From a virus (Duplodnaviria; Caudoviricetes), in IMG/VR virus record IMGVR_UViG_3300013383_000002, positions 1-64,000 of that record: DNA of 64,000 nt; one strand, 5' to 3'. Both the position numbers and the translations under genes were made by a program. Below, one piece after another: positions 152 to 64,000 of this stretch (position 1 is the stretch's first letter; every line of letters begins with the position of its first letter). The notes under the pieces were generated by a model. The model saw only the letters and a program-made list of their open reading frames with translations. It had not been told where the DNA came from and did not search any database.

Positions 152-1450
152 ATGCCTAAACGAAATCGCTTACAGCTAGACTTCTCGCTTTCTTCGGCAG
201 AAGAACGTCAAGTCTTCCTAACAAAATACCTAGACTCTCTGGCGTTTACGCCAACTTCATCCGAACTAGAGCTAATGGCCGACTATGTTCTATGGGGAGA
301 TAAGAATTCTGACGAAACCATTGAACTAGAAACCTTCTGGAAAAAGAAAGAAAAAAAAGTCGAGTCTCTTGACGAATTACAAGAAAACCCCACTTTCCTC
401 GAAGCGCGTCTTGCTTCTCCTTACGTCGCTCCAAAAACTCAAAAAACACGTCGAGTCTTCTCCCGAGAGGAAGCTCGCGCCCTCGCCTCTCCTGACGTCC
501 TCGCGCACCTTGAAGGCCTTTGGCGCGAAATTGATACGCTCGACCTCGAAACTCGCTTCTATGAAAACTTTATTGGCCGTCAGGCTAAACCCCCTCGTAG
601 TCAGCTCCTCGAACGTTTTACTTCGGCGGAAGCCGAAGAAATCCGCGCGCACGCCCAATCCCTAACCGAATATGCCTATTTGAAGAAGCGAAAACTTCTA
701 GTTGAGAAACGTTCTGAACAATACCCATGGCGTGATACTTACGCGGCCCCTCTAATCCAGCGTCACACCCCCACTATTGTCCAAGACCCCGTACTTCCTC
801 CGCTCTTAAACACAGATATTCCCATTCTTCCACTCGGAAACCTCCCAATTCAGCTGGCTCCAAAAATTTTCCCCTCCTCCGGTGAGTTTCCAACTCCCGG
901 CACTCTAACCCCAGACGAAGAAAAGCTTCTCTCCAAAACCATCTGGCGCGAACCCTCAAGTGCGCCGAACTCATTTGATTTCCGCGACCCCGCGCACCTC
1001 GCTTCTTTTATCTCTCTTTACTCCGAGCTTTTGCCCGACCAAAACTCTGATGAAGGCCTTCAAGCCCTTTTTTCCACTTTTACCTATTACCAAAAACTCG
1101 CACGACTTTCACCTCTCTACCTCGACATATTGCGCGCGAAGGTCGCACACGAAACCAACACTAAAATTGTAGAGAAGATAGCATCAAAATATGGCAAATC
1201 TTATGGCGAAAATTATATTTCAACTCTTTATCGCCAAAAGATATTGCCAAAAATAGCCGCAGCGGCGTCCGCGCATTACCAAGTTACTTCGGAGCTATTT
1301 TTCCCCGAAAACTTCAAAACGTGTAAGGATTGCGCGCGCACGCTACTTAGGACTCCAGATTACTTTATGCGCAAAGCAAAATCTTCAGATGGCTTTTCAC
1401 CTCGTTGTAAAGCTTGCGAAAAAGCGCTGCGCGAAAGGAGGAAAAATTGA
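152..1450 (+). CDS. hypothetical protein with C-terminal Cys4 zinc finger, possibly DNA-binding or regulatory
   Basis: 432-aa ORF; CKDC...CKAC at the C-terminus; RBS present. Confidence 0.6.
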   Translation: MPKRNRLQLDFSLSSAEERQVFLTKYLDSLAFTPTSSELELMADYVLWGDKNSDETIELETFWKKKEKKVESLDELQENPTFLEARLASPYVAPKTQKTRRVFSREEARALASPDVLAHLEGLWREIDTLDLETRFYENFIGRQAKPPRSQLLERFTSAEAEEIRAHAQSLTEYAYLKKRKLLVEKRSEQYPWRDTYAAPLIQRHTPTIVQDPVLPPLLNTDIPILPLGNLPIQLAPKIFPSSGEFPTPGTLTPDEEKLLSKTIWREPSSAPNSFDFRDPAHLASFISLYSELLPDQNSDEGLQALFSTFTYYQKLARLSPLYLDILRAKVAHETNTKIVEKIASKYGKSYGENYISTLYRQKILPKIAAAASAHYQVTSELFFPENFKTCKDCARTLLRTPDYFMRKAKSSDGFSPRCKACEKALRERRKN

Positions 1451-1722
1451 AACTAGATTTAGTAAACGAGTTTGTCGCACGCGCGGCGTCACTGGAAGTA
1501 GAGGAGTTTTTGGGGCTTACCAATCTTCTCAATGTTCCGCTGACTACGGAAGCGCGCGATCACCGTCCTTTTGAGGATGTCTTTATTGATACAGTTGTCG
1601 CTTTCGGTAAAATGGGGCGAAAGCAAAAAAGAGAACTTATAAAAGTGCTGCGCCGCGTAGAAAAAGACAATAAAGAAATGCGCGCGACCCTTGAAGAGGA
1701 GGAGGCCTCCAAATGCCAGTAA
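1447..1722 (+). CDS. hypothetical protein (TTG start likely)
   Basis: GGAGG precedes TTG at 1447, in frame with ORF 1414..1722 and coupled to the upstream stop. Confidence 0.6.
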   Translation: MKLDLVNEFVARAASLEVEEFLGLTNLLNVPLTTEARDHRPFEDVFIDTVVAFGKMGRKQKRELIKVLRRVEKDNKEMRATLEEEEASKCQ

Positions 1723-2708
1723 TTCCTCAAATTCCTCGCCCTAAGCGTTCGTTTCTCTCAAAACGGTGCGCGCGATGCCAGGTAGAACAACCAGAAGAGG
1801 ATTTCGCTTTCACTCACAGCGAATTCTATCCCGACCACCATCTTCCACTTTGTAATTCATGCGTTACTTCGATGTTGCGCGAACACGACTTTGATTGGTG
1901 CTTTATTGATAAGTTGTGCCAATGGGCTGATATTCCATTTATTGTAAAAGAATGGGAGAGATTGCGCGAACTCAATTCTCCTGATAGCGTGTGGGCAGCT
2001 TATTCCAAAGTTTTTGCTTCGCAAGACTATGAGGGCCTTGGGTGGGACTCTTATTTCAAGCAATATCAAGAACTAAAGGCAGTCGGTTTAGTGGAAGAAG
2101 AGATTCCGCTTTTGAAGGAGAAGCATTTCGACGAGCTGCGCGCGCGGTGGGGTGCCAACTATGACGAAGATGCCCTAAATTACCTCGAAAACCTTTATCA
2201 AGGACTTCTAATGTCTCAAAACGTGGTCGGCGCACTTCAAATCGACCAAGCTCAAAAGCTTTGTAAGGTGTCCTATGAAATTGATAGTCGCATCCGCGCG
2301 GGAGATAAAGACGTCGATAAATTTATGGCGACTTATGATAAGCTGGTCAAAACAGCTGAGTTCACACCCAAAAATATAAAGAACGCGCACGACTTCGATA
2401 GCTTTGGTGAATTGGCACTTTGGCTCGAAAAACGCGGCAATCAGAACAAGTTTTATGATGGCGCGACTCGTGATGTTGTAGACGAAACAATCAAGAATAT
2501 TCAGGCATGGAATCAGCGCCTTTACGTCAACGAAAGCAGTCTTGGTGAAGAGATAACCGCGCGCCTCCAAGCTCTTAAAAACGTCCAAGAAAGCGAAAAT
2601 TTCTATGAGACAGAGCAAAAAGATTTCGACGCCGACATCTACGAAGCAGAAGTTTTCAAAGATGAAGACGAGGAAGATTTTGAGACAGAAGGGGAGATGG
2701 GCGTATGA
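1713..2708 (+). CDS. zinc-finger protein upstream of terL, candidate terminase small subunit
   Basis: CARC...CNSC, acidic C-terminus, ATGA overlap with terL; function inferred from position only. Confidence 0.5.
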   Translation: MPVIPQIPRPKRSFLSKRCARCQVEQPEEDFAFTHSEFYPDHHLPLCNSCVTSMLREHDFDWCFIDKLCQWADIPFIVKEWERLRELNSPDSVWAAYSKVFASQDYEGLGWDSYFKQYQELKAVGLVEEEIPLLKEKHFDELRARWGANYDEDALNYLENLYQGLLMSQNVVGALQIDQAQKLCKVSYEIDSRIRAGDKDVDKFMATYDKLVKTAEFTPKNIKNAHDFDSFGELALWLEKRGNQNKFYDGATRDVVDETIKNIQAWNQRLYVNESSLGEEITARLQALKNVQESENFYETEQKDFDADIYEAEVFKDEDEEDFETEGEMGV

Positions 2709-5235: not shown

Positions 5236-6753
5236 TTGGAAGAACAGAAAGTTGAAAATAAAACCGCGCGCGACCTTTCCTCCTTTACTCGCGCGCGTGA
5301 ACAGATGGTAGCAAAAAGCCGAGAAATTTATGGCGATTACGATTATCTATCTGGCGCGCGGGCTTCTCGAAGACTGCGCAAATACTCTCTAAAAGAGATT
5401 GATGAAATTATTAGTTCTGGTTCTTTAGCAAGTCAGCGAATTCTTTCAAGAACTTATTTCGCTATGGATGGTTTGTATAAGAGAATTCTTTTATACTATG
5501 CGACGCTAATGAAAGGGGCCGGATTACTATCTCCTATTCCGGGTTATGGTAAAAAACTCTCCACCGACCATGTTCAAAAGCGGTACTATGGTGCATTGAA
5601 TTATCTTGATAAGTTACATCTCAAGGAGCTTGAAGAAAAAGTTTGTTTGCGCGCCCTCATAGATGGAAGTTACTATGGTGTGATTCAAAAGTTAGATAAG
5701 AATGATTTTGTACTTTTGGATTTGCCCGCGCAATTCGCTCGTTCTTGCTTTAAGGATATATACGGTAGAGATATAGTTGAATTTGATGTCACGTATTTTT
5801 CTCAAATTATTGATAAGGAAGATAGAGAGGAAGAATTAGCTCTATTCCCATCAATAATTTCTAAGTACTACCGAAGATATGAAAGAGGAAAAGAAACTTG
5901 TCCTTGGGTAAAAATTCCCGCGAATATCGGAGTATGCTTTTCGTTCATGGAAGATGGCTATCCGCTTTTCCTTTCCGTCATTCCGGCCACCATTCAATAT
6001 GATGAGACAGTAGATACCGAAAGAGAAAGAGATTTGGAAGAAATTAGAAAAATTCTAATTCAAAAAATCCCTCACCTTCAGGATGGCGCGCTTCTCTTTG
6101 AGCCGGATGAAGCAGTGGAAATGCACGCTGGCGCAGTTGATATGATGAAAGGAAATAAAAATCTTTCTGTCCTAACAACTTACGCAGACGTGGACTCAAT
6201 TGTTTCTAAGACTTCTTCTGATGCCGTTTCAAACAATCTTGAAAAAATGCTTCAAAATGTATATGCTGAAGCTAGTGTTAGTGCGCAGTTATTTTCTCCA
6301 ACTGGCGCGCAAGCCCTTGATAATTCTATTCGTAATGATATGGCCTTTATGATGATTATTATGAATAAAATTTCGCGCTTTGTAACGGACTTACTAAATG
6401 AACTATTTGGAAATACGAATGTCTCTTTCAAATATATCATTCTACCAATTACTTATTATAACCAATCTGAATTTATAACAGATTCTATGAAGCTCGCGCA
6501 AGCTGGTTATAGTTTTCTACTACCATCTATTGCGATTGGAATTGACCAAAGGGAGCTTCTTGGAATCAAGGAATTAGAAAATGATGTCTTAGGTCTTCGT
6601 GATAAACTAATTCCACTTGCTTCTTCTTATACTGAATCAGCCTCGAGTGGAGAACCTGGTCGTCCAACAAAAACGGCTGAGCAAAAATCTCCTTCAACGA
6701 TTGTAAAAGAAGAATCAATCAATAAACAAGGAGGCTTGAAGACCGATGAATAA
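5236..6753 (+). CDS. portal protein (probable)
   Basis: 505 aa directly after terL, TTG start with GGAGG; C-terminal GRP motif common in portals. Confidence 0.75.
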   Translation: MEEQKVENKTARDLSSFTRAREQMVAKSREIYGDYDYLSGARASRRLRKYSLKEIDEIISSGSLASQRILSRTYFAMDGLYKRILLYYATLMKGAGLLSPIPGYGKKLSTDHVQKRYYGALNYLDKLHLKELEEKVCLRALIDGSYYGVIQKLDKNDFVLLDLPAQFARSCFKDIYGRDIVEFDVTYFSQIIDKEDREEELALFPSIISKYYRRYERGKETCPWVKIPANIGVCFSFMEDGYPLFLSVIPATIQYDETVDTERERDLEEIRKILIQKIPHLQDGALLFEPDEAVEMHAGAVDMMKGNKNLSVLTTYADVDSIVSKTSSDAVSNNLEKMLQNVYAEASVSAQLFSPTGAQALDNSIRNDMAFMMIIMNKISRFVTDLLNELFGNTNVSFKYIILPITYYNQSEFITDSMKLAQAGYSFLLPSIAIGIDQRELLGIKELENDVLGLRDKLIPLASSYTESASSGEPGRPTKTAEQKSPSTIVKEESINKQGGLKTDE

Positions 6754-48600: not shown

Positions 48601-50277
48601 GCCACCTAGACAGTTATGGACAATAACATTTTCACATTTAAAGGAGTGTGTAGTATTATTTAGACAATAAACTATTTCATTCATCGTAATCTTTGTCTTT
48701 GACTTTATTCGTACTTTTCGATACCAAGTATTATCAATGAAAATATAGTCAGTCTGTTTTATAGTTTTAGCTTGTGAAAAAATTTGACATACTTCTTGAT
48801 GTGAATAAGCCTGTAATTTTTTTATTACACCCAAAATACTATTACTACCCTCCACATACCAAGCATTTTGATGATGAACCCCATCTTTGCCAGTACGTAC
48901 CTTAGCTAGAGAAATCCCTGAGGTGATATGTAATTGATTTAGAATTTCATAAATATCATAAGATAATTGTTTGGAAATAGAGGCGCTAACAAATTCTCCG
49001 CAAGCATATTTTACAAGATTACCAGGTTTTCTAATTCGAAAATATCCATCAGCCAAGAAATATCCAAAAACTAATTCATAATCAAGTTCTTCAGAAATTC
49101 TAAGGCGTTCTGGAACTTTTTTTGTATCAGCTTTTACATCTCCGAATAAATAGAAAAATAAATCAATAAATTCTCTACTTGAACATGAAATATCTACTCG
49201 ATGATTATCTGGTCGTGCAGATACAGACCATTCAATACCTAATTGCTGACTTGCTGGTAAAATAAAAGAATTGTAATAAATAGGAAATTCTTTTTCATTG
49301 AAAGTAAACTTTATATTTGGATTCTTTTTTAGTGTGATGCATCCATCTCCTAAAAATAAACCGAAAAGTCGCATCAACTCAGGTGTTATTTCTATTCTAT
49401 CGGGTAAAATATATTTCTTATAAGATAATTCCGAAGAAGACCAAGAGTGTAAAAATTCAGTTTTTTCTATAAAAGGGCTACTTTTATAGTCGTAAGAACA
49501 GGGCAGTAAGCACATATGCTTAGTCCCACCCTTTTTAGTAATAAGTTCTTCAGCTGAGACCCATCGAGGAGTTTTCTTATTATTACTAATGACTAAAAAT
49601 TGATGATTACCAGTACAATAGATAGGTGAAGGATTACCACCTAAAATAATTTCGTAGCCATCGCCAATATAATTTCTACTAGTCGGCTCAATTACTTTTT
49701 CCCATTCTCCATAACGATTTATAACAAGGTCGCCTGACTGTATATCTTCAATATTTTTCCAGCCCTGCCTAGTTTCAATTTGAGTACCAGCTCGAAAACA
49801 CGCTGTCGAACCAATAACATGGCCGGGATTAGCGCCAATAATTTCAAATAAATCGTTATAATAGGTTGGAACGCGTCTCATGCCCCGCGCCATATAACTA
49901 CGAAGCCATGCACGAGTAGAAAGTTCTCTAATTTGTTGATGTCCAATTGCGTCTTTTGCCAGGAGAATAAAGTGATAATACTTATCTTGACCCGCTTTAT
50001 AGTTAGACGCGTTGAGGCCATTACGGCAGAGATAGATTTCGTTTCCTAAAATAAGTTTGAAGTCTGGATTCTTTTCTTTTATCTTTTGGTAATATTTTTC
50101 CGCGCGGACTGCGCCAGAGACGGTTTCATGGTCAGTAATGGCTACTACTTGGTGCCCTAGTTCAATCGCATAATTGATTAAGTCTTCGGTCTTGATGATA
50201 CAGTCACGGAGACGCTCATTTGACCAGTCAAGGTGATTATGCAGAGAACCAGGGTAACTTAGTTTTCGTTCGTCCAT
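42696..50277 (-). CDS. dnaE: DNA polymerase III alpha subunit (family C), spliced: complement(join(42696..44175,45275..50277)); 2160-aa precursor with two inteins
   Basis: PHP motifs LHNH, AITDH, TTDSHY; GPGRGSGAG; DCDTD; GIHAGG; KIDML; GYSF|CRAH restored by splicing. Confidence 0.93.
44176..45274 (-). mobile_element. group I intron in dnaE (1099 nt)
   Basis: P1 AUACUCGUU/GACGAGUAU, P10 ACAA/UUGU, AATTGCGGGG...AATCCGCAGC, P7 GACTA/TAGTC, terminal G. Confidence 0.92.
44290..45064 (-). pseudogene. frameshifted LAGLIDADG homing endonuclease inside the dnaE intron
   Basis: RBS and ATG at 45064; YLIGLMLTDG and IIRGIIDGDG motifs lie in different frames; several indels; 3' end approximate. Confidence 0.8.
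46285..47589 (-). mobile_element. intein 2 in DnaE (435 aa) with LAGLIDADG domain
   Basis: A|CLKPGT...THNH...LIGIYLAEG...GCYYGDG...VSHN|C. Confidence 0.93.
48613..49800 (-). mobile_element. intein 1 in the DnaE PHP domain (396 aa) with LAGLIDADG domain
   Basis: STA|CFRAGT...TGNH...LFGLFLGDG...GYFLADG...IVHN|CLGG. Confidence 0.93.
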
Positions 50278-50299: not shown

Positions 50300-50587
50300 C
50301 TAATTATATGACAAATCTTTATCTGGAAATACGTTCTTTATTCTAGCTCTATCTTCATGCTCAGCTATATCAAAAAATCCCCAACCTTTATGAAGGCTCA
50401 TTACCCCAATAATTTCCCATGGAAACTCACTAATCAAATAATAATATTCATCCATTTGAATTCTATCGTAAGTTCCTTCGTCCTCAAATAGAATATATTG
50501 TTTAATATCCTCTAAGGTATGAAGTGTGCCAGGAAGTGAAGCTACTAGTTCTTTTTTGAAGCCGTCTATTTTATAAATTCCTATCAT
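50300..50587 (-). CDS. hypothetical protein
   Basis: GGAGG RBS before ATG 50587, coupled to the MTase stop. Confidence 0.6.
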   Translation of the reverse strand: MIGIYKIDGFKKELVASLPGTLHTLEDIKQYILFEDEGTYDRIQMDEYYYLISEFPWEIIGVMSLHKGWGFFDIAEHEDRARIKNVFPDKDLSYN

Positions 50588-51378
50588 TATTTCCCCTCCC
50601 ATTGCTCTTTTAGCCATTTGCGTAATCTCCATGCTGGCAAATTTGGAGAAGCAACACATTGAAGAAGTTCTTTATAATCACATTCCTTTAGCTTTTCTTG
50701 TAACCAATCTTTTATATCACTATCGCACTTGAAGACTACTTCATTCGGGCATGTTTCATCTTTATTGAGTAAACGAATTGTCCCCCAGGCCGCAACACGA
50801 AAATCCCAAGGATAATTCAATATATCATCCGGATGTTTATATTTTCCAGTCCGAAAAATATGCCTGCACTCTAAAATGCCAGGAATATCATAATTTTGCT
50901 TATGGCCATTTTTACAATAATGATAAATGTTTAAACAGCAATGGACTCTTCTCCCGCTGTAAGGCAGTGTTCCTAAATCTTCGCTATATAGTAACTCTGT
51001 ATCCTTCATTGTTCGATTTTGATTTAGTTGACTGATTGGTTGGATAAGAGAAATATATGGCGAATGAGTTAATGAAACTTTTACGAACTGAACAGAAAGC
51101 TTGTTCGCCCTGCCAAAAGGAGGGTTGCCAATTACTAAAGATTTGTCCATGTAGGGGAGCCTTACTTCTCGATAATCAGCCTGAACAATATTCGGCGCTT
51201 CTGGAAGAATATCATAGGCTAATGTTTCTTCCGGTAAATATTTCAAATATGCTCCCGCCCCCGCAGAAGGTTCAATAATTCTAACCCAATCAGTGCCAAG
51301 AATTTCAAAAGTTTTTTCAACACAGTATTTAGCTATACTGTCTTCAGTATAATATTTATCATTTGCTATTTTTCCCAT
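50587..51378 (-). CDS. amino (N6-adenine) DNA methyltransferase
   Basis: KYYT, IIEPSAGAG (SAM binding), then NPPF (catalytic): gamma-class order. Confidence 0.88.
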   Translation of the reverse strand: MGKIANDKYYTEDSIAKYCVEKTFEILGTDWVRIIEPSAGAGAYLKYLPEETLAYDILPEAPNIVQADYREVRLPYMDKSLVIGNPPFGRANKLSVQFVKVSLTHSPYISLIQPISQLNQNRTMKDTELLYSEDLGTLPYSGRRVHCCLNIYHYCKNGHKQNYDIPGILECRHIFRTGKYKHPDDILNYPWDFRVAAWGTIRLLNKDETCPNEVVFKCDSDIKDWLQEKLKECDYKELLQCVASPNLPAWRLRKWLKEQWEGK

Positions 51379-51956: not shown

Positions 51957-54619
51957 ATCTGCTATCTTCAATTTCCAAATCAGTTATGAAAATTTGTGGC
52001 GTTATTTTTCCACCCCACTCGTTGAGATTTGGTTTGCCAACCAAAGTAATATCCATATCTCCGGGAAAATTCTTCAATTCCTCGATCAAATCTTTTGCGC
52101 GGAATTTTACATAAGTAATTCCATTCTTCTCAATTCGTAAAGTATCTAAATTCTTTCCAATAATCTTTACGTCACTTTGTGACACATTCAAATTAGTAAT
52201 TACCATAACTGGCTCTTCATTTTGTGGGCCATAAACCTGCTCAATCGAACAAAGCTCTTCAATTGCTTCCCCGATTTTAGGGTCGTTCGCGCGCATTACC
52301 AAGTCTACATCATAATAATTTTCGCCAAAATCAATTTTTGAAAGTTCTCTATTGGCGATTTCATGGAACTTTGGTAAATTTTTGTCGAGAATGCTAATAC
52401 CAAAAGCGCCATCATGCGGTTATCCTCTATTTCTAAAGGGCCTGACTATTTTTTACATAGAATTTCTATGAACATCCATTTCAAGCAACGTATCAATAGT
52501 TGCTTTACTCTCCGAAGTGGAGATAGTCGATACAGGTTTCTTGACTTAGAATTTTTTTATTATATTCTTTATTTGCTCTAATTGGATATTTGAGCCGTTC
52601 GTCAAAATGATTGTTCCCTTGGTTTATCATTTTAGCAGAAGACCTGTTCCATCCAACTTTTGCTCCAATATGATTTAGAGGAATGTCAGAACTACAGCAA
52701 AGCCATTGTATATACAAAGCTCGATATTCATCTAATTCCTTTTCTGAAGGACGAAGTGGATAAATCAATTCTTCTTTTCTCCAAGAGCCGCCCTCTTTGA
52801 TATGGCGGAAGATATTTGAGGTAATTCCCCTCGTCTTTATAATCGTTTTAGCAGGAATTCTCCAATCTAGCATATCTTGAATAACCTTATCAGCAATTTC
52901 TTGCGTAATAGCACTATTTGGATTATTTCCTGCTCTCATAATTGAAGGTTCTTCTCCACCATCTTGAACGTTATATCCATTTGGTACTTTTGAGTTATAT
53001 AGAATAATATATTCTCGTTCTTTTTCATTATAATTTTCAAACCAGCCCAAAATTTCAAAAGTAAAATTTTCTGCTCCATATTTTCTCAAAGCTCTATGAA
53101 TAGGACAATTTTTCTCATTATGACCATTGATATGCTGGCCCCATCTGACTTTTGGATTTTTTGCTTGCCCAATATAAATTTTATGATTGATTTTATTTTC
53201 TATTTTATAAATAGCTTTTATCATTTTATTCACCTCCCTATATCTAAGAATAATTCTAAGTCAAGTTTCCCACGAGATTACCACCACCATTACGTGCTGT
53301 GGCTTCCTCGTTAGCCATTCTAAAACAACCCCGCTGATGAAACGGAAAAGATGTTACGGGCCATATTATCGACCCAACGTATATTCAAATAGACTTGTTT
53401 GATTTAGATAATTTTTGAATGAAGATAATTCCGTGTTTCCTGGTGCTCGCGCACTACCTCGAATGTATCCTTCTTTATTGAGCCGTGCGACTATGGTCGG
53501 GCGCTTATACTTCGAGGCCAAGGACATCGAAATCAATCCATTTAACTCTGCCGGAAATACATCATCATCCTCTAACCGAATAAAAAGAACTTGGTTTGAT
53601 AATAGATCTTTCTTGAAAATTTTTGCTTCAAGTCTTTCAACCATTTGTTCCTTCATCTTATCTTGGTGAGACTTTGCGTTTACACATTCACGAACGCTTT
53701 CCACGCACAGCCGTTCTTTTGTTCCTTTCGCGCCGCGCTTGTGGCAATCAACCATCATTTCTGGCATTACAAAAGACAAATATAAACGTTCTTTCTCATC
53801 CATTGAACCGACTCTAATCATGGCATTGATTAGCGGAACAATATAAAAAGCGACTGTAATTGGAGTAATCTTTCCGCCCATTGAATAGTCTTGCTTTTCA
53901 ACTAAAGTCCTAAACATTTTATTTTTGATGTTCTTGAAACCGGTTTGAACGAGATATTGGTTTTCGACTTCTAGCATTGACATCATATCTGCGACGATGC
54001 CCAAAGCACATAAATCAATATATTCCCAAGCAAAGTCTTTCAAGAAGAAATTATCAAGCGCGCGACACAGTTGCCAAGTGACGCCAGCTCCGCACAAATC
54101 TTTATTTTTATAATTAGGCGAAGTTTGATTATTTACTAGAATCATATTTGGAGGAATGATGGTATTCTCTTCTTTGATGTGATGGTCCGCGCACAACACA
54201 GGACAACTAAAATTGGCAATATATTCGCCATCATTCGTAGCACTATCCGGCGCGATAATCATACTCCAATCTTTATCTTCCAGTTGTTCCATCAAATCAG
54301 AAAAACCGTGTTGTTTTCCAGAGTGGATAAAATATTGAATCTCTTTTTCTGGATTTAGTCTTTTCAAATATTGATAGATAATGGCAGATGAAGTGGCACC
54401 ATCGACGTCACAGTCTGCAATGAGCGCGTAGGGTCGTGCGTCGTTGATTGTTAGTTCTATTGCTTTTACAGCTCGTTCTATGTTCTCTAAATCGCGCCAA
54501 CTTTGAAGGCAGCTTTCATCTGGGCGACAAAATTCTTGGACGTCTTGAACACCTCGCGCGCGAAGTAGATTTTCTCCGAAATTTTCTTTTATTTCTGGAT
54601 TTCTTAGTCGATATTTCAT
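51946..54619 (-). CDS. recJ: RecJ-like ssDNA exonuclease, spliced: complement(join(51946..52416,53372..54619)), 572 aa
   Basis: DCDVDG, DHH, GIVADMM, P.INA..R, GSAR; DHHA1 motif G|HDGAFG restored by splicing. Confidence 0.92.
52417..53371 (-). mobile_element. group I intron in recJ (955 nt) with GIY-YIG endonuclease
   Basis: P1 UGGGU/GCCCG, P10 AUG/CAU, P7 GACTA/TAGTC, terminal G. Confidence 0.9.
52505..53233 (-). CDS. intron-encoded GIY-YIG homing endonuclease
   Basis: AIYKIEN...YIGQ...R...H...E...GYN. Confidence 0.9.
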   Translation of the reverse strand: MNKMIKAIYKIENKINHKIYIGQAKNPKVRWGQHINGHNEKNCPIHRALRKYGAENFTFEILGWFENYNEKEREYIILYNSKVPNGYNVQDGGEEPSIMRAGNNPNSAITQEIADKVIQDMLDWRIPAKTIIKTRGITSNIFRHIKEGGSWRKEELIYPLRPSEKELDEYRALYIQWLCCSSDIPLNHIGAKVGWNRSSAKMINQGNNHFDERLKYPIRANKEYNKKILSQETCIDYLHFGE

Positions 54620-55674
54620 TACACTTTTACTCTCTCCTTTACCAACTGACGGAAGATTTCCTCTCCTTCATCGACTGGGCTATCTTTTTTCTTCGTCAGA
54701 TTGCTTCTATCATAAACAAAAGAAAATTTACAATAATTTTTATATTTATTACAAATCTTCCAAAGTTTCTCAAAATATTCAGTACTGTCTGCTTTTTCTT
54801 CATTATCTAAACAAAGGATAATTTCTCTTGGGTGCGCGAACCGCATCAAAAGGTCGATTTGGTATTTATTGAACTGGCTGCCGCAAATGGCGACGGCACA
54901 GTTCGGCGTAGAGAAATTCTCAGACAAAAGAACGCTTTTTTCTGCCTCAAACACATAGCAAACGCCCCTCTCTTCAATATTCTTTTTGTTTTGAAAAAGT
55001 CCATATAGATTGAATGAAAGAGGATGAGAATACCAAGTTCCTTCAACTTGAATAGGCATATACTTGCCCACATTCTTAACCTCCCATTCATCAAGTGCGC
55101 GCCCTCTAATTCCAACCAATCTTCCATTTACATCAAAATGAGGTATAATAATTTTATTTTGGGTGGGTGAATAAAGTATCCCATATTTATCCATCGCTTG
55201 CGCAGTAATTCCATCTTCTAGCCATTCAACAGGATAATAATGTTGAAAAGTTTCAAGAACCTTAGGGGAAAACTCGGGGAGTTCGCGTCGAGACTTCTGT
55301 TCTACATATCTATCCTTATCACTTTTATATTTTGTTTTTAGTTCTTTTTCTTCGGCGAAATAAGACTGGTTATAGCTCTGAATAAAGCTATAAACATCTT
55401 GATACCAATCAAATACAATTTCGCGCGTCTCATACCAATGCTCAATGAATTGGAATATTGACATCGCGCCGCAAGAACTATAACAATAGAATAAATGTGT
55501 ATTCTTATAATAATAAAGCTTCCAGGAAGCTTCATCTACGTTTAGATTGTGGCAAGCTGTTTTACAGAGTAAAAAATCTCTTTTATCAATCCATGGAACG
55601 TCTAGCTTATCCAAAATCTTTTCAATATCTTCTGGTTCAAGACTTTCAATTATCTCTTTGTAATTGATTGCCAC
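54619..55674 (-). CDS. dnaG: DNA primase (DnaG-like)
   Basis: N-terminal CH...CxxC zinc domain, IIPH...GIRGR, TOPRIM FEAEKS and LDN. Confidence 0.8.
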   Translation of the reverse strand: MAINYKEIIESLEPEDIEKILDKLDVPWIDKRDFLLCKTACHNLNVDEASWKLYYYKNTHLFYCYSSCGAMSIFQFIEHWYETREIVFDWYQDVYSFIQSYNQSYFAEEKELKTKYKSDKDRYVEQKSRRELPEFSPKVLETFQHYYPVEWLEDGITAQAMDKYGILYSPTQNKIIIPHFDVNGRLVGIRGRALDEWEVKNVGKYMPIQVEGTWYSHPLSFNLYGLFQNKKNIEERGVCYVFEAEKSVLLSENFSTPNCAVAICGSQFNKYQIDLLMRFAHPREIILCLDNEEKADSTEYFEKLWKICNKYKNYCKFSFVYDRSNLTKKKDSPVDEGEEIFRQLVKERVKV

Positions 55675-57236
55675 TAGTTCTTTCCTTTCTTATTGATTTC
55701 TTTCAAAAATTCCAAGTCTTCTTCTGAGAGTTCCCAATCTACTGTATTGCGCGCTTCGTCTTCTGTAAGCTCTGGAATGGGGCGCATATATCTGTCGGTG
55801 GCAAACAAATCTCGTTTCCGAAGCGTTCCTGCGTTGAATTGGCTCCAAATTCTAACTTGCGTCCATCGACCAGAGCGAACTTTGAAGACATCGGTTACCA
55901 TATCAGGAATGATGCCTTGGTCGAGAACTCCATCTTGGGTTAGAATTTCAATTTCATCCTTGGTGGGTCGCGCGCAAATTACACCATTATCTGCTTTATT
56001 GATGGTCGCGCGACCACCAGCCAAGGAAGCTTCATTACGGATATCGGTATTATCATCCGCTTTGGCATTGACCTGAGTTGAGGTAAAAACACAGACATTT
56101 TGCTCAATCGCTAGGTCTTTGAGAGCAGTAGTCATCAATAAAAGCAGCTCGTCGTTACGGAGGCCGTGCCCACGAAATTCTTCAAGCAGTTTTGGAGAAA
56201 TAAAAATATAATCATAGAAAACATAACGGCTTCCGTAAAGAATCACTTGTTCACGTACTATATTTTTGATTTGTTCAATTGAGGGGTCTGGAATTCTCAT
56301 TAGTTTTAGTGTTTTATAATGCTTGATAATTTTGCGCGCGACCTCTATTCTTTCTAATTCGTCTTTTGAGAAATCACCATAACGAAAGCGGCTTCTTTCA
56401 ATTCCGGTCAAATATCCTAAAACCATTTGGATAATTTGCTCTGGTTTTTGCTCTGTCATAATAAAAAGAACGGGTTCCGTATTACCTATTCTAACCCATT
56501 CTCTCCTATAATCGTCATAATAAAATGGAAAAGCCAATCGGCAGGCATCTGCCACCGCCTGAGCTGACTTTCCTCCGCCACTCCCGCTACTACGAATAGT
56601 TAGCGCGCCAAGTTCCGCGCCATTTATAATATGAGAAAAAATGTCGCCATTTACTGGAAGTCCAATACCTTCTGACGCGCCAAAACTATCAATTACATCA
56701 TCCACTTCTTCTTCCAAATTCCATGATTGAATTTCGTCATTCTCATTATAATTTTGTTCGAGTTTCAGAATTTTGGATTTGACTTGTTGAAGAATTTTTT
56801 CAATAGTCAGTTCTTCAAAATTTTTATTGACTTCAAATGCTTCTGGTCTTGTTTCATCCTCAATAAAAAACTCGCTAGTGTCAACGCCCATTTTTTGAAG
56901 AGAATTCAACAAGCTAATTTTTTTTAGACGTCGATAGTAGAGGAGAAAATTATCTTCATCTGTATAATACTGCGCGTCTTGAAGATACTCAATACCATGA
57001 GCCGTGTCAAACGTAACTCGCGCGGACGTATTATTCTTCAAGTAGCCTTCAATATCAATAGGAGCAATACGAGTCGCGCCATTTCGATAAAGACCATCAA
57101 TCGCAGCGAAAATATACTTGTCAAGTTTTGTTTGAAAGTCATCTGGTGTCAAAATATATTTATCTGTATGACTGAGATATTGTGGCTTTGCCATAAGTGC
57201 GCCAAGAACCTGAAGCACTGTATTTTTATCTGTCAT
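55674..57236 (-). CDS. dnaB: replicative DNA helicase (DnaB-like)
   Basis: SGSGGGKS, MTEQ, FYDYI, TSTQVN, NKAD, KVRSG. Confidence 0.85.
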   Translation of the reverse strand: MTDKNTVLQVLGALMAKPQYLSHTDKYILTPDDFQTKLDKYIFAAIDGLYRNGATRIAPIDIEGYLKNNTSARVTFDTAHGIEYLQDAQYYTDEDNFLLYYRRLKKISLLNSLQKMGVDTSEFFIEDETRPEAFEVNKNFEELTIEKILQQVKSKILKLEQNYNENDEIQSWNLEEEVDDVIDSFGASEGIGLPVNGDIFSHIINGAELGALTIRSSGSGGGKSAQAVADACRLAFPFYYDDYRREWVRIGNTEPVLFIMTEQKPEQIIQMVLGYLTGIERSRFRYGDFSKDELERIEVARKIIKHYKTLKLMRIPDPSIEQIKNIVREQVILYGSRYVFYDYIFISPKLLEEFRGHGLRNDELLLLMTTALKDLAIEQNVCVFTSTQVNAKADDNTDIRNEASLAGGRATINKADNGVICARPTKDEIEILTQDGVLDQGIIPDMVTDVFKVRSGRWTQVRIWSQFNAGTLRKRDLFATDRYMRPIPELTEDEARNTVDWELSEEDLEFLKEINKKGKN

Positions 57237-57772
57237 CAAATGTCCTCCAAGTTCCATTTAGGTCTTGCTTTGGTTTTTTCTTTTTTGACCGCGCGAGCAG
57301 GCGCTTTCGCGCGAAGCTCTTCTCTACGCCTAATTTCATCTTCGATGGAGGCCACAATTCCACGATTCTCTTGTTCTTTGCGCGACCAGTACTCAGTGGA
57401 TTTAGAATAGACGTATGGAATAATTCCAAGTCCGCCGTAACTCTTTTCTCTATCCCCGTTTTGAATTTCGTAGAAATATTTTAGGGCAAAGTAACACCCC
57501 TTATACGTCCCCTTTTTCTCTGATTTGATAAAGGATTTGAAAAAAGCTTCACATTTGAAAAAATCATATTTGATTTTTAGGTCGTGCGCGAGATAGTCAT
57601 AAATGCGGTCGCGCCATTGCTCATCTTCATTTAGGTTTGCTTTTTTCCAGTTATCATAACAAGTTTTATGGTAATAATAATTCTTTGCAGGCATCACATA
57701 AACGGTGTCCAATCCATCGAGCTGGGCATCAAAATACTGTCCGCATAGTCGGCATTTGACTTCGTGTTTCAC
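57236..57772 (-). CDS. hypothetical zinc-binding protein (possible helicase loader or replication accessory)
   Basis: CRLC...HKTC; GTG start at 57772 with GGAG RBS, downstream of a promoter. Confidence 0.55.
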   Translation of the reverse strand: MKHEVKCRLCGQYFDAQLDGLDTVYVMPAKNYYYHKTCYDNWKKANLNEDEQWRDRIYDYLAHDLKIKYDFFKCEAFFKSFIKSEKKGTYKGCYFALKYFYEIQNGDREKSYGGLGIIPYVYSKSTEYWSRKEQENRGIVASIEDEIRRREELRAKAPARAVKKEKTKARPKWNLEDI

Positions 57773-57864: not shown

Positions 57865-57877
57865 AACGTATATCTAT

Positions 57878-60800
57878 TTAGTTCATGCTATCGCGTAGGT
57901 CACGAAGGTCGAGAAGGGCCAAGTATAGGAGGTCTACTTGGTCTTCGGTAACTTCTGAAAGTTTTATCTTTCGGCCAAAAATCATTTCAACCTTCTTAGA
58001 CATCGTGCGAACGATATCAGCTTTTTCGTCATCCGTTTGTGCTTTATTGACAAGCGAAGTCCAGATTTCACGAGCTTCACTCATAGTGGCGTTGAAGTCA
58101 TGCTTTTCATTAGTGATAATTGGAGCATTGTCAACAACTCGCGCACCATTTTGTTCTTCCATGTCAATTGCCTTGGCGAGAGCGTCCTCAAATTCATGAA
58201 AACCAAAAGGAATACGTGGAGCAAGATATTTACAGTTTGTTATCATAAAGGCTTTTTATCCTCTATTTCTTATACTTCATTTCGTATAAGCTCAGCATAT
58301 CTTTTTATCCTTATGGGATATTTGGACTCGTGGGAGTTTTATTCATGAACAAACAAGACTCGAATTTCTCTTTTTTTCTTTTTAGAAAAAGGATTTTTTC
58401 ATTATAAAAACCATAATATAATTTTACACTATTTGTTTTATTGAAAGTGAAATAGTAAAGTGGAACAGTTGACCTTTTATCCCATCTTGAATGAATGATC
58501 GTTGGAATAATACCTAATTGCTCTTCCAAAATAGACATAATAATAGAAAGATTTTCTTTGGAAACACTTACTAAATTAGTTCTTATCGTATGTCCATCAT
58601 TCGGTTTATAGACACACCCATTTCCATCAAAATATCCATGAATAAAATCTAAATAATATTCTTTTGGAAGATTCAATGGAAATTTCATTTCATAGGTTTT
58701 TTTATTTGTAATTCCATAATTAGCAAGAAAACTGACATATTTTTTTGAAGAAAAAGTCAAACTAACTGAAGGGTGGCCGTCCTTCAAGTAATGATAAATT
58801 GGCCCATCAAACTCTATATACTTTTTGATTTTTTCTAAAACTTCTTCATCTTTTTCTGCCAAACCAATACTTATTCGATGTAAAGTTTTTCCTTCTGGAG
58901 ATTTACAAATATAACCATCTGCCGCGATGAACCCCATCAGCCAAGCTGTATCGTGGTTGATTTGAATGATTTTATCATCATTTATTTTATACTTTCTATT
59001 ATCAGTATTTTGTCGAGCTTCTTCGTGAGTTCTTATTCTAATGTTGTTTTCTTTCAAGATTTTTTTTAGACAAGCGTCACTTGTTCTATACTTTTTAGAG
59101 CATTTTGATAAAGATAGCCCGTTTGAGTAATCTTTGATAAAATCCTCAATAACTCCTTCTATTTCAACACGAGGTCTTTTTTTATGAGTTTTTTTTAATT
59201 CAAAACCGTTTTCTCTAAAAATTCGTCTAGTTAGGTCATAGCCATAACCTTCAAGCTTGCCAGCTTCGATAAGAGATAAATCTTTTTCATAGTAATTTGT
59301 TTTTATTCTTTGAATTACCTCTTCTGGCACCACTTTTTTATTTGCCATGTTATTTTCTCCTATGCGTTGCCCCTGACCAGTATTTTACCACTAGCCTTCA
59401 GGTCTGATTCCCATCTCAGGGTTCCAGCTTTTTTCCAAAATTTTATTGATAAATTACTTTACCATAGCTCTATTTCTAAAGCGGCTACCTGCTGTAACAG
59501 TGGGCGTTGAGCGCGTTAGAATCCAGCGTTCACTTTCCCCTTTTTCGTTCCAAGATTGAGTAATAACACCGATGATGTCAACACAATTTGTTATCGTAAA
59601 GTTTTTTATCTTTACTTCTTACTCTTGAATTTGAGTAAGTTCAGCATATCTTTTTTCCTCTACGTTAGAGGAATAGAGTCTCGTGGATTTTATATCATAA
59701 AAGGTCTTCATTATTTGATATTTTCTTTCCATATAAATGGAATTAGGAACATACAGAATTTCAAAAAGTTTTAGTATAGTTTCTTTTTTATAGACTTGCA
59801 TTGAATAAAAATGGTCGCCTTGACTCAAAGTTTTTGTGCTAGTAGACAGGGAAGTAATAATACCATACTTATTCAAAAGAACTTGACGCATCCATTCAAT
59901 AACTTCTTTTCTGGCACCACAAATATACCAATTATATTGATATTTTTTATAATTCGTCCAGATACAACCGTCGCCATCAAAGTATCCTCGGATATAAGAA
60001 ATAAAATATCGTTCGTCAAGAAAAGTAGGCGGGACCAAAGTAAAAGTTTTATGAGGAATTATTCCATAATGAGCTAAGTCTTGCTTGATAGTATAGCTAC
60101 AAACTCTAAGACGACTATACTCATGGCCTGAATTATTAGTATAGTGTTCTATCGGTCCTTCATAACTTAGTTCATCTTTTATTTTATATAATATTTCTTC
60201 ATCAGCTCGTTGGATGTCTATTGAGAAATGGTTTGAGCTTTTTGAAACGCCTCCATCAGATGCTAAAAAACCAAGAATGTAAGCCATATTGTGGGATTGA
60301 ACTTTGAAATAATCGTCATTGACATTATGTGCTCGGCATTCTTTCATGGCCTCTTGTCGATTACGAACTTTTACTCCCCATTTTTTCAGATATCTTTGAA
60401 TTGTTATTCCTGCGATTCCAACGTCTCGGCCGATAGCGTTGACCCCTCTTTTCAATACTGCATAATTATATACTATAAACTCTTTTTGTTCATCTGTGAA
60501 TGAAATAGGTTTACCCACGCTGGGTTCCTCCTTTATGTTTATCAATCTATGCGTTGCGCGTGTTAGAGCTTTTGCACCCTAACTTCCGCTCTGATTCCCA
60601 TCTCAGGGTTCCAGCTTTTTACTCTAATTTAGATATTTGTTACCAAATAAATGCCCCATTGAGGCCATTGACAATTTTTAGACAACGGTTATTGAGGTCG
60701 GGCTTCGCACTAATAAGCTTGCCCTCCTCGTCATAAGTCTCTTTCAAGTGACACGTCATGAGAAGGCCATATCTCATCATAGTAATTTTGCGGAGGGAAT

Positions 60801-62427
60801 TTTCAAATTCTTTCGACAGTTGAGCGTAACCTCCACCGAAGGGCACATCTCCGATCTTAGATACTCCATTCTGCGCGCAGATAAACTGCTCACAAAGGTC
60901 ATAAAGTCAATGTGTTATCGTAAAGGTTTTTTATCCTTTACTTCTTATACTTCATTTCGTATAAGTTCAGCATATCTTTTTTACCTCATCAAAGGTAATT
61001 CAGGCTCTTGGATAATTATTTCATAAGAGATAAGAATTTTTTATATTTTCTTTCCATATATAGGGAATCTTTTACATATAAAATATTGAAAATTTGTCTA
61101 GCTCTGTCTCCGTAATAAGTAATTTCATACCAGTCTCTATTATCGGACAATTTCCCTTTTACTGTTCTTAGAACCGTTTGTATATTATACTGGGTACTTA
61201 AAAAATCTCTCATCCATTGTATGATGTCTTTAGAAGCTCCTCCAATAAAAAAGCTAGGAGTATAATTATTTAAAACAATACATCCATCTCCATCAAAATA
61301 CCCTCTAATATAAGAAATACAATACTCAGGAAGAAGAAGCTCTGGCGGTTTTAATATAAAAGTTTTATTTGGAACAATTCCGTAGTGAGCTAAATCTTTT
61401 TTTATAGTAGAACTCCAAAAAGAAAGCTTCGCTATTTCTCTTTCTTTTTCTCCTTCTCCTACACAAGAATACACTTTTACTGGACGAGTATTTTTTAGTT
61501 CTCTATTTATATCTTCAAGAATTTTTTTATCATCAGCTTTTAACTGAATAAAGATACCGTTTTCTTTAGAAGAGACACTCCCGTCCGAAGCTAATAGCCC
61601 TAGTATATATGCCATATTATGAGATTGTGTTTTAAAATAATTATCATCAATAGTATACTTCCGTAAATTATCTTTTGATTCTACATAATTACGGATATAA
61701 ACACCATTTTCTTGAAGAATAGTTTTTACCGCTCTTTGACTAAGGCTAAAAGGCTTCCCACTAGGAACAAGTCCTTTTTTTAAGACTGTATAATTATAAA
61801 TTACTTTTTCTTGTATTTCTTTTGAAACATCTTTTTTATTTTGATGTTTAGCTTCTCTAATTTCAACATTATGAGATTTTAATAAATTACGGACAGTTTG
61901 TCTGTTACAATTATACTCTTTGGCTAAACTCATTAGAGAGTATTTTTCATTTACATATTTTTTATATATATCTTCCCAAAATTCTTCTAGTTTACTCAAC
62001 CGAGTCAACCTCCTATGTTTATATTATCTATGCGTTGCGCGTGTTAGAATTTTTACATTCTAACTTCCGCTCTGATTCCCATCTCAGGGTTCCAGCTTTT
62101 TACTGAAATAAAACTAATTTATTACTAAATTAGAGGACGCTTTTCCATCCCAATAGTATCAATGCAAATTGTCTGATATAGTTCTTTTGCTTGCGGTTTT
62201 TCAAGCTGTCGAAGAACAAGTTTCCACTCGCTCCAAGTGGTAATTGGCTGAACCATCGCATTGCTTTGAGCGTTGGTTCCAATCTCGGTCGCTATGATGA
62301 GAGCTTTGTCGCTTTGACAACAAAACTCCGTTTTACCAATCTTAGGCGCGCCTGCGAGAAGCAGATATTTTCCACGTAGATTTCTCGAGATTACATTCGG
62401 CTGTAAAGAAAGAATATCAATGCCCAT
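57878..62427 (-). CDS. AAA_24/Sak4-like P-loop ATPase (recombination), spliced: complement(join(57878..58232,59479..59583,60662..60907,62147..62427)), 328 aa
   Basis: GAPKIGKT, E.G, CIDTI, FGGGY, H.K, L|VDIIG and AGSRF|KYL all restored; exons total 987 nt in frame. Confidence 0.85.
58233..59478 (-). mobile_element. group I intron C in the AAA ATPase gene (1246 nt)
   Basis: P1 GCUU/GAGC; AAGCTGGAACCCTGAGATGGGAATCAG; P7 GCATA/TATGC; terminal G. Confidence 0.88.
58311..59348 (-). CDS. intron-encoded double-motif LAGLIDADG endonuclease
   Basis: WLMGFIAADG and FIHGYFDGNG; N-terminal HTH-like repeats. Confidence 0.9.
   Translation of the reverse strand: MANKKVVPEEVIQRIKTNYYEKDLSLIEAGKLEGYGYDLTRRIFRENGFELKKTHKKRPRVEIEGVIEDFIKDYSNGLSLSKCSKKYRTSDACLKKILKENNIRIRTHEEARQNTDNRKYKINDDKIIQINHDTAWLMGFIAADGYICKSPEGKTLHRISIGLAEKDEEVLEKIKKYIEFDGPIYHYLKDGHPSVSLTFSSKKYVSFLANYGITNKKTYEMKFPLNLPKEYYLDFIHGYFDGNGCVYKPNDGHTIRTNLVSVSKENLSIIMSILEEQLGIIPTIIHSRWDKRSTVPLYYFTFNKTNSVKLYYGFYNEKILFLKRKKEKFESCLFMNKTPTSPNIP
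59584..60661 (-). mobile_element. group I intron B in the AAA ATPase gene (1078 nt)
   Basis: P1 GCCU/GGGC, P10 CAAUG/UGUUG; same core; terminal G. Confidence 0.88.
59619..60545 (-). CDS. intron-encoded double-motif LAGLIDADG endonuclease
   Basis: YILGFLASDG and YIRGYFDGDG. Confidence 0.9.
   Translation of the reverse strand: MINIKEEPSVGKPISFTDEQKEFIVYNYAVLKRGVNAIGRDVGIAGITIQRYLKKWGVKVRNRQEAMKECRAHNVNDDYFKVQSHNMAYILGFLASDGGVSKSSNHFSIDIQRADEEILYKIKDELSYEGPIEHYTNNSGHEYSRLRVCSYTIKQDLAHYGIIPHKTFTLVPPTFLDERYFISYIRGYFDGDGCIWTNYKKYQYNWYICGARKEVIEWMRQVLLNKYGIITSLSTSTKTLSQGDHFYSMQVYKKETILKLFEILYVPNSIYMERKYQIMKTFYDIKSTRLYSSNVEEKRYAELTQIQE
60908..62146 (-). mobile_element. group I intron A in the AAA ATPase gene (1239 nt)
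   Basis: P1 GGGAU/GUCCU; same core; terminal G; join gives DTIGILYDLCE. Confidence 0.88.
61016..62008 (-). CDS. intron-encoded double-motif LAGLIDADG endonuclease
   Basis: YILGLLASDG and YIRGYFDGDG. Confidence 0.9.
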   Translation of the reverse strand: MTRLSKLEEFWEDIYKKYVNEKYSLMSLAKEYNCNRQTVRNLLKSHNVEIREAKHQNKKDVSKEIQEKVIYNYTVLKKGLVPSGKPFSLSQRAVKTILQENGVYIRNYVESKDNLRKYTIDDNYFKTQSHNMAYILGLLASDGSVSSKENGIFIQLKADDKKILEDINRELKNTRPVKVYSCVGEGEKEREIAKLSFWSSTIKKDLAHYGIVPNKTFILKPPELLLPEYCISYIRGYFDGDGCIVLNNYTPSFFIGGASKDIIQWMRDFLSTQYNIQTVLRTVKGKLSDNRDWYEITYYGDRARQIFNILYVKDSLYMERKYKKFLSLMK

Positions 62428-62444
62428 AATCTTCGCCTCCTAAA

Positions 62445-63362: not shown

Positions 63363-63403
63363 TTATTTTCTCCTTTTCAAATAAAATTATTTTTGGCTCT
63401 TCA

Positions 63404-63432
63404 AATGGCGAGGCCGATAACGACCTCGCCTA
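63404..63432 (-). terminator. hairpin, probable terminator
   Basis: GGCGAGG...CCTCGCC stem. Confidence 0.6.
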
Positions 63433-63446
63433 TATGAATTCAATTC

Positions 63447-63698: not shown

Positions 63699-63770
63699 TT
63701 CAATTACTCCTTTTATTATAAAAAAATATTTTTATTATAAACGAGACGCTGTCTCATTTATTACATTTAT

Positions 63771-63799
63771 ATTATACACGATTTTCTTTGTTTTGTCAA
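63771..63799 (-). promoter_or_regulatory. consensus sigma-A promoter
   Basis: TTGACA, 17 bp, TATAAT. Confidence 0.85.
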
Positions 63800-63862
63800 A
63801 AATTCAATCCAAAGTTTTTCGTGTATCAAAACGAGTTGTCTTTCAACTCATCTTGTGGTAAT

Positions 63863-63891
63863 ATTATACTCAAAATTCAAAGAAAAATCAA
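63863..63891 (-). promoter_or_regulatory. second tandem sigma-A-type promoter
   Basis: TTGATT, 17 bp, TATAAT. Confidence 0.65.
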
Positions 63892-64000
63892 GCATTCAAA
63901 CTCACCAAATTCTGAATTTTTTCTTTATCTTTCAGCTTCATCGCTTTGATTCCCATCGTCGCGCGCGACAGCAGAGGAATTTCATCCATCTTTAGACGAA
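63888..64000 (-). CDS. gyrA: 3' end of a type IIA topoisomerase A subunit (GyrA/ParC), partial
   Basis: RLKMDEIPLLSRATMGIKAMKL resembles a C-terminal beta-pinwheel blade; only 36 codons visible. Confidence 0.6.
   Translation of the reverse strand, partial: RLKMDEIPLLSRATMGIKAMKLKDKEKIQNLVSLNA

Follow-up and report, generated by a model that had tools for sequence, protein, structure and literature searches.

The closest described counterparts of the feature reported here are HIP1 (GCGATCGC), a highly iterated palindrome (HIP) of cyanobacteria, and the alternate HIPs of these bacteria (Xu, Lawrence and Durand 2018, PMC5861425; Elhai 2015, PMC4390886). For three decades no function of HIPs has found general agreement, and they have been studied mainly in cyanobacteria. 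A further precedent comes from phages without a Rec module, in which Chi builds up to become the commonest octamer (Zheng et al. 2025, PMC12315714). Here we describe short runs of alternating C and G, built on the words GCGCG and CGCGC, in an AT-rich gut or rumen phage (Duplodnaviria; Caudoviricetes; IMG/VR record IMGVR_UViG_3300013383_000002). The window, i.e. the whole stretch of 64,000 nucleotides that was analysed, is the first 64 kb of this complete virus record, which comprises 121,436 bp with a 69-bp terminal repeat and has a guanine-plus-cytosine (GC) content of 39%. The runs are present in large excess, they are a property of the DNA and have a defined anatomy, they are conserved between close relatives, they are lacking from young DNA, and in some relatives they are joined or replaced by alternate words. 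We tentatively interpret them as the phage counterpart of the cyanobacterial HIPs, that is, as a word of the form T-(CG/GC alternation of 5-8 nt)-A that would be kept by weak purifying selection and read as duplex by a lineage-specific factor. This interpretation is possible rather than probable. In the searchable literature we found no description of an iterated-palindrome excess in phages.

In the window, GCGCG occurs 153 times and CGCGC 162 times (315 overlapping words), whereas base composition predicts about 16 of each, i.e. about 32 in total, so that the excess is about 10-fold. Relative to a first-order Markov model, which predicts about 24 of each, it still amounts to 6.4-6.6-fold. The over-representation claimed in a sequence-only reading of this DNA is thus real and stronger than first stated. 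Longer words deviate further: the hexamers CGCGCG and GCGCGC are enriched 11-15-fold, and of the two alternating 7-mers the window contains 31 and 28 copies, where composition predicts 0.6 each (about 50-fold). For each word length from 4 to 8, (CG)n words rank at the top in the window, well clear of all others. None of the other five dinucleotide alternations is enriched, nor are GGCC and CCGG. When the words are merged into maximal alternating C/G runs of at least 5 nt, 179 runs are found in the window (152-64,000) and 389 in the genome, about one per 312 bp and spread genome-wide. Their lengths in the genome are 5 nt (205 runs), 6 nt (90), 7 nt (56), 8 nt (33), 9 nt (4) and 10 nt (1). All five example sites that the sequence-only reading had quoted could be located. 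They are an 8-nt run GCGCGCGC at 1,332-1,339, a 9-nt run GCGCGCGCG at 2,138-2,146, which is one of only five runs in the genome that exceed 8 nt, an 8-nt run CGCGCGCG near the start of the portal gene at 5,265-5,272 with a second copy at 5,290-5,297, and an 8-nt run GCGCGCGC at 27,484-27,491 within the gene for a tail protein of 1976 aa. At 55,700-57,600, a dense stretch covering DnaB and a neighbour, the same reading had counted about 16 sites where about 1 was expected; we counted 14 runs (24 overlapping 5-mers) against about 1.2 five-mers by composition.

To be enriched, a word needs 5 or more alternating bases. CGCG or GCGC on its own, with flanks that do not extend it, reaches only 0.4-1.2 times the expectation, whereas every hexamer with at least 5 alternating bases is enriched 5-15-fold. 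The probability that a run is extended by one further base, 0.19 in the background, rises to 0.56 at the step from 4 to 5 nt, stays at 0.40-0.51 through the step from 7 to 8 nt and drops to background level (0.13) from 8 to 9 nt; for the other five dinucleotide alternations it stays flat. Lengths of 5-8 nt are favoured, with a cut-off at 8 nt. Outward of the run the flanking base is A in 52% and T in 17% of cases, which gives the pattern 5'-T...A-3'. These flanks are seen at both ends on the coding strand; they recur in most codon phases and also outside coding DNA. A full consensus copy, T-CGCGCGCG-A, is located at 16,316-16,323 (coordinates of the run), and the genome has 11 copies of the full-form 10-mer TCGCGCGCGA, where about 0.07 would be expected. 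The least favoured extension is GCGCGT.

The excess resides in the DNA. When synonymous codons were shuffled within genes, with protein and codon usage kept, the real counts were 3.2-3.4 times higher for 5-mers (z about 25) and 6-8 times higher for 7-mers, and after permutation of codon order the real genome was still 5 times richer in alternating words. We reject a codon or amino-acid artefact on the basis of these codon shuffles. The sequence-only reading had named loss of the excess under codon-preserving shuffles, or its restriction to a single codon pair, as outcomes that would speak against it; instead, the excess persists, the runs occupy all three reading frames, and they are present in non-coding DNA (2.6 per kb) as well as in open reading frames (ORFs; 3.3 per kb). 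Codon choice follows the word. GCG makes up 46% of the Ala codons when C follows and 19% otherwise, and CGC makes up 47% of the CGN Arg codons when G follows and 24% otherwise. Since the dipeptides Ala-Arg and Arg-Ala exceed expectation as well (1.8-fold and 1.55-fold), the word marks the proteins too. There is no strand bias among odd-length runs (140 G-type and 125 C-type), and no strand or orientation polarity was detected besides a mild coding-strand effect. Even spacing, which the sequence-only reading had raised, was not found: at short range the intervals follow a nearly exponential distribution (coefficient of variation 1.19).

To follow the fate of individual copies we made codon alignments of 18 genes with relatives retrieved via the portal protein. 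At 86% nucleotide identity, alternating 5-mers were kept in 76% of cases, compared with 35-39% for other all-G/C 5-mers and 52% for the remaining 5-mers. In a codon-matched comparison, the silent third base of GCG was conserved in 88% of cases inside runs and in 35% outside, and that of CGC in 76% and 50%, respectively. These values bear out the earlier proposal that the motif is actively maintained. At 64% identity, retention falls to 6-10%, equal to controls, although those relatives are equally enriched. Over short evolutionary times copies are thus protected, whereas over long times they can replace one another. The density seen in a given gene is conserved weakly and inconsistently in distant relatives.

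DNA that entered the phage recently lacks the word. No run is present in three ORFs for LAGLIDADG homing endonucleases (58,311-59,348, GC content 30%; 59,619-60,545; 61,016-62,008; all minus strand), in a GIY-YIG homing-endonuclease-like ORF (52,505-53,233, minus strand) or in the two inteins of DNA polymerase III alpha, namely intein 1 (48,598-49,800, bounds approximate) and intein 2 (46,285-47,547), both on the minus strand. Together, these 6.2 kb hold 0 five-mers, whereas 11.4 are expected after GC adjustment (P about 1e-5). In this respect the sequence-only reading was correct, which had described the motif as missing from mobile inserts and had found essentially none in the two inteins and the three LAGLIDADG ORFs. 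The polymerase III alpha exteins, by comparison, contain 14 five-mers against 16.7 expected at the genome rate. Both inteins are missing from relatives in which the exteins are 93-96% identical and hence were inserted recently in this lineage (polymerase III alpha gene, 45,268-50,277, minus strand). The LAGLIDADG homologues of all examined relatives contain zero copies each, and a 94%-identical copy of the ORF at 59,619-60,545 in one relative is likewise free of runs. Three more ORFs without the motif were identified as HNH homing endonucleases, and no run is present in the HNH endonuclease ORF at 37,159-38,013 (minus strand, GC content 32%), which is missing from four sister genomes. In these phages the word is a strong marker that separates resident DNA from recent acquisitions. 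Beyond the window, an island at 91,281-95,040, which includes a calcineurin-like phosphoesterase, has a GC content of 51-63% in the 39% GC genome and is probably a recent acquisition; here, the word does not rise above the island's own shuffles.

All 57 of 57 portal relatives (44-86% identity, GC content 31-40%) are enriched, at 1.2-7.6 times the Markov expectation, and the word is a distinctive k-mer signature for binning these phages in gut and rumen metagenomes. Among the outgroups, Phass-1, Enterococcus phage EF1 and the gyrase-bearing contig MT835476 show no enrichment. The latter (MT835476.1, a human faecal phage) has 505 CGCG in 50 kb and is very CpG-rich for its 48% GC, but this richness is fully explained by dinucleotide content (ratio 0.8-0.9) and is another kind of signature. 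Via the methyltransferase-like gene described below we also retrieved four complete sister genomes (G252, G254, G255 and G256). G254 iterates (CG)n between T-tracts and A-tracts, G255 iterates CTGCGCGCAG (17 sites, with about 0.02 expected), and G252 has no alternating-CG excess and iterates GCGGCCGC instead, at 33 sites (29-fold) that cover all frames and non-coding DNA. In G256, both kinds of word are weak. The alternate palindromes of the sister genomes are generally found in all frames and in non-coding DNA, and some lineages of portal relatives add CCCGGG (14-15-fold), CGGCCG (about 8-fold) or GCCGGC. In the present phage CCCGGG occurs 0 times against 7.5 expected, so a word enriched in one lineage is avoided in another. 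In none of the five genomes did asymmetric sub-words show orientation polarity, regional or otherwise. G252 also carries recurrent 10-mers, e.g. GCGGCCGAAG and GCGGGCCGCC, possibly as hairpins or terminators.

Other short palindromes of the genome behave in the opposite way to the alternating-CG hexamers, as they are depleted or absent. In the window and the genome, TTAA, GATC and TGCA reach 0.14, 0.18 and 0.35 of expectation, CTTAAG is found once, and CCCGGG, GGATCC and CGTACG not at all. The restriction-avoidance profile depends on the subclade and comprises TTAA, GATC and TGCA together, GATC alone, GGCC or none. Such subclade-specific sets suggest unmodified DNA and differing hosts or restriction systems. 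As for the host, the wall-binding domain of the endolysin gave a single weak bacterial match (59%), to a metagenome-assembled genome of Clostridiales with 55-60% GC. We sampled 251 genomes of the class of this match (Clostridia) for a host signature. The top 20 of these 251 by GCGCGCG have Markov-normalised ratios of 0.3-1.5, i.e. no enrichment within this sample.

The phage is a large siphophage of Firmicute type. Its best protein matches, 30-47% identical, are to human-faecal phage contigs and large Enterococcus, Clostridioides and Bacillus siphophages; there is no close cultured phage, and the phage database holds nothing nearer than about 30-47% protein identity. In the window, structural genes encode a tape-measure protein and tail proteins. 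The replication genes comprise polymerase III alpha, DnaB and a DnaG-type primase (54,619-55,674, minus strand), which adjoins DnaB. Genes for nucleotide metabolism encode a class II ribonucleotide reductase, a dUTPase and a dCMP deaminase, and RuvC-like, RecJ-like and Mre11-like nucleases are encoded as well. Just past the window end there are GyrA and GyrB, a UvrD-like helicase and an ATP-dependent ligase; in the phage genome the helicase, a resident GIY-YIG nuclease and the ligase adjoin one another. Group I introns and several homing endonucleases are also present. In the two relatives L096 and L097 polymerase III alpha is only 33-46% identical, though the neighbouring methyltransferase is 88% identical; judging from these identities, the replicative polymerase was apparently swapped between close relatives.

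The density of alternating 5-mers varies up to 7-fold between adjacent genes, as exemplified by GyrA (15.8 per kb) and GyrB (2.1 per kb). The two adjacent genes lie at 63,888-64,000 in the window and on to 68,128 (minus strand), and GyrA has a C-terminal beta-pinwheel wrapping domain. GyrB is 73% identical to that of G255 and 35% identical to those of G254 and G256, an identity pattern that suggests mosaic replacement. Among the highest motif densities (13.9 per kb) is that of the first ORF (152-1,450, plus strand, 432 aa), the C-terminal third of which has a weak PHROG match to a sigma factor; orthologues in all compared relatives are likewise copy-rich.

The earlier reading had also proposed a signal driven by methylation or repair. 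As a possible reader or writer of the word we considered an amino-methyltransferase-like ORF of 263 aa (50,587-51,378, minus strand) with the motifs EPSAGAGAY and NPPF, which went undetected by Pfam and has 2311 homologues. It is predicted to fold as a class I S-adenosylmethionine methyltransferase, and its nearest structures are gamma-class N6-adenine DNA methyltransferases (M.BseCI, M.TaqI, CamA, HsdM) and m6A RNA methyltransferases. The protein is the most conserved one across distant relatives (68-80% identity, compared with 25-55% for core genes such as portal, capsid, primase and DnaB), and its conservation is uniform over the whole length. We rejected it as the determinant of the word because of this uniform conservation, its 80% identity in G252, which has no alternating-CG excess, and its adenine-type fold. 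G252 (L173-L180) has four small NPPF-type methyltransferase-like ORFs, compared with one in the present phage. Neither a C5/N4 cytosine methyltransferase nor Vsr was found in six-frame searches or motif scans of the five genomes, and no base-modification enzyme of the ThyA type was found by Pfam six-frame searches; both negatives carry moderate weight, since Pfam missed the real methyltransferase-like ORF. No depletion of the very-short-patch type was seen among the single-transition (deamination) neighbours of the word (GTGC 0.93, TGCG 1.09, GCGTGC 0.90). The proposal of a methylation or repair signal thus found no support in these searches. Nor did any observation of this analysis speak for binding by the topoisomerase or by a winged-helix protein, which the sequence-only reading had offered as possibilities.

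The limited length range, the symmetric flanks, the conservation at silent sites, the turnover that keeps density, the lack in young DNA and the lineage-specific palindromes point to a specific recognition word rather than to a generic physical or mutational effect. In the scenario that we favour, the word would be written into resident phage DNA wherever codons permit, partly against protein preference. Weak purifying selection would act on many interchangeable copies, so that density would be maintained and not positions. We infer a reader protein, namely a dyad-symmetric, sequence-specific factor that would recognise the word on duplex DNA and whose specificity would differ by phage lineage. 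Such a lineage-specific reader would explain why sister phages iterate GCGGCCGC, CTGCGCGCAG, CCCGGG or CGGCCG. As to its role, our best guess is a dense, orientation-free chromosome tag that might serve recombination-dependent replication, break repair or the discrimination between self and foreign DNA. Several observations weigh against this scenario. No reader protein was identified, and the sole methyltransferase-like gene shows no co-variation with the word. The two flanks are statistically independent (109 runs with both, compared with 106.5 by chance) and give no hint of cooperative dimer binding. The density gap between adjacent genes may stem from mosaic history and not from function, and the conservation of sites could also come from a repair bias that restores them without benefit to the phage. 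Finally, a host-encoded reader or a host genome signature may be an alternative.

Of the competing explanations, one would have the runs arise as a mere by-product, be it from codon usage, amino-acid content, patches of local GC or a signature that the genome took over from its host. Runs can indeed encode only Ala or Arg, and motif density goes up with the GC content of a gene. However, the excess outlasts the synonymous and the codon-order shuffles, extends to non-coding DNA and is not shared by the remaining G/C-only words. Moreover, the GC-rich island at 91-95 kb is no richer than its own shuffles, the sampled Clostridia genomes lack the excess, and subclades that differ in their restriction-avoidance profile have it in common. 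Taken together, this makes a by-product exceedingly improbable. A structural role was considered in three variants: Z-DNA, a supercoil sink coupled to gyrase, or pairing between RNA or single-stranded DNA copies of self-complementary words. The phage does encode GyrB and a GyrA with the wrapping domain, and all words are G/C-only palindromes, so that any two copies are mutually complementary. For CG repeats, however, the flip to Z-DNA under physiological supercoiling needs about 10-12 bp or more, a length whose lower end is reached by only 1 of the 389 runs. A Z-DNA-prone element, as suggested by the sequence-only reading, would be expected to favour long runs; the opposite is the case, as 53% of runs are only 5 nt long and extension ends at 8 nt. 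In addition, GCGGCCGC and CCCGGG do not alternate between purine and pyrimidine, no Z-alpha domain was found in a Pfam six-frame search (moderate weight), the gyrase-bearing MT835476 is without excess, and a published account of gyrase site preference gives no pointer to alternating CG. We consider a structural element very unlikely. The same holds for initiation sites of the DnaG-type primase, a highly doubtful idea in which a G/C-only template would provide a stable short primer in an AT-rich genome and palindromes would serve both strands. In its favour, primase, DnaB and polymerase III alpha are all encoded by the phage itself, and the sites are dense, on both strands, free of position and lineage-specific. 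The trinucleotides known as primase sites have a cryptic 3' base, which the 3' flanking A of the word may parallel. These sites are, however, trinucleotides that are not known to be enriched in their own genomes. One site per 312 bp far exceeds the need for Okazaki initiation, and several palindromes within single genomes fit one primase poorly. Furthermore, primase homologues with 34% identity exist in cultured Firmicute phages.

More weight has to be given to two models in which the word is tied to DNA repair. According to the former, the runs are a Chi-like signal for a helicase-nuclease, either AddAB/RecBCD of the host or a phage enzyme, and dense copies on both strands would halt degradation and trigger recombinational repair. 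Chi-rich phages without a recombination module provide the precedent (PMC12315714). Chi-type words of Firmicutes are short and G/C-rich, i.e. GCGCGTG in L. lactis (core GCGCG) and AGCGG in B. subtilis and GAAGCGG in S. aureus (core GCGG), and the core GCGCG is iterated in the present phage and the core GCGG in G252. That restriction sites are so strongly avoided implies that the phage DNA encounters cleavage, and a Pfam search found no RecA or RecT homologue, although this negative counts for little, since the methyltransferase escaped Pfam as well. Orientation is the main obstacle. Whereas 20 of the 23 Chi sites in phage LLS have one orientation (Zheng et al. 2025, PMC12315714), odd runs (140 G-type, 125 C-type) and the asymmetric sub-words of five genomes have neither orientation bias nor regional polarity. 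Palindromic forms and symmetric flanks are preferred, GCGCGT is the least favoured extension, the density is 6-fold above that of Chi-rich phages, and the alternates CCCGGG, CGGCCG and GCCGGC are without Chi-like precedent. A Chi-like signal is thus rather improbable. The latter model is a non-adaptive drive, in which sequence-specific mismatch repair, repair of the very-short-patch type or biased gene conversion between co-infecting relatives would turn near-cognate sequences into the word and restore mutated copies without benefit to the phage. Conversion or restoration of this kind is Elhai's model for HIPs, which that study links to methyltransferases and for which it proposes methyl-dependent repair (Elhai 2015, PMC4390886). 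It would account equally well for hyper-abundance, site conservation, lineage-specific words and the lack in young DNA, and the UvrD-like helicase, the resident GIY-YIG nuclease and the ligase are encoded side by side. On the other hand, neither a cytosine C5/N4 methyltransferase nor Vsr was found in the five genomes, the neighbours GTGC, TGCG and GCGTGC are not depleted, and the sole methyltransferase-like protein belongs to the adenine type and shares 80% identity with its counterpart in a phage that iterates another word. Site conservation has, moreover, been argued to favour selection over replenishment (Xu et al. 2018, PMC5861425). We regard a non-adaptive drive as unlikely, yet as an alternative to be taken seriously.

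If the runs are indeed a phage counterpart of HIPs, a phage family with HIP behaviour would offer a smaller and more tractable system (121 kb, many sequenced relatives and sister lineages that have switched words). Comparative genomics could name the reader by co-variation, and synonymous recoding could probe fitness. A more speculative extension, for which the chances are low but not negligible, is that an AT-rich superfamily of gut and rumen phages has an autonomous "self-word" system. Each lineage would then have its own G/C-only palindrome, and a fast-evolving, phage-encoded reader would steer recombination, repair or a nuclease toward or away from its own chromosome. Among viruses, such a system would correspond to Chi, HIP or uptake sequences, and it would also serve competition between co-infecting relatives.

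In comparison with the known systems, the phage word resembles Chi in phages LLS and P1 in that a short G/C-rich word becomes the top oligomer by selection (Zheng et al. 2025, PMC12315714, and, as far as it is cited there, Bobay et al. 2013). As in the Chi phages, near-cognate words are frequent too and sites are gained and lost over time, and the core GCGCG is shared with the Chi-type word of L. lactis. Unlike Chi, which is asymmetric and strongly oriented, the phage word is dyad-symmetric and without orientation bias, and it is about 6-fold denser than Chi in Chi-rich phages. The DNA uptake sequences (DUS) and uptake signal sequences (USS) of Neisseriaceae and Pasteurellaceae are, like the phage word, dense genome-wide self-tags across coding DNA with lineage dialects. 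They differ in being non-palindromic and read by the bacterial competence machinery in DNA uptake, a process that phages do not have. HIP1 differs from the phage word in several respects as well. It is carried by a bacterial phylum and not by a phage family, and it is a fixed octamer, whereas the phage word is an alternating run of variable length (5-8 nt) with T...A flanks. The phage word is denser (1 per 0.3 kb, compared with about 1 per 1 kb for HIP1), has no GATC core in a phage that avoids GATC, and has no cognate cytosine methyltransferase that could be found in the phage genome, although a methyltransferase specific for the word or its core and encoded alongside it has been proposed as a HIP feature (Elhai 2015). 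HIPs also show long-range periodic spacing with periods of 10-90 kb (Xu et al. 2018), for which a phage genome of 121 kb is too short. Nevertheless, the label "HIP1-like" given by the sequence-only reading is apt, since hyper-abundance, dyad symmetry, frame independence, conservation and alternate palindromes in sister lineages are shared. Like HIP1, the phage word is a short G/C-rich palindrome that is at least 10-fold over-represented, lies within and between genes in any frame, is conserved at its sites above background and gives way to other G/C-rich palindromes in some lineages.

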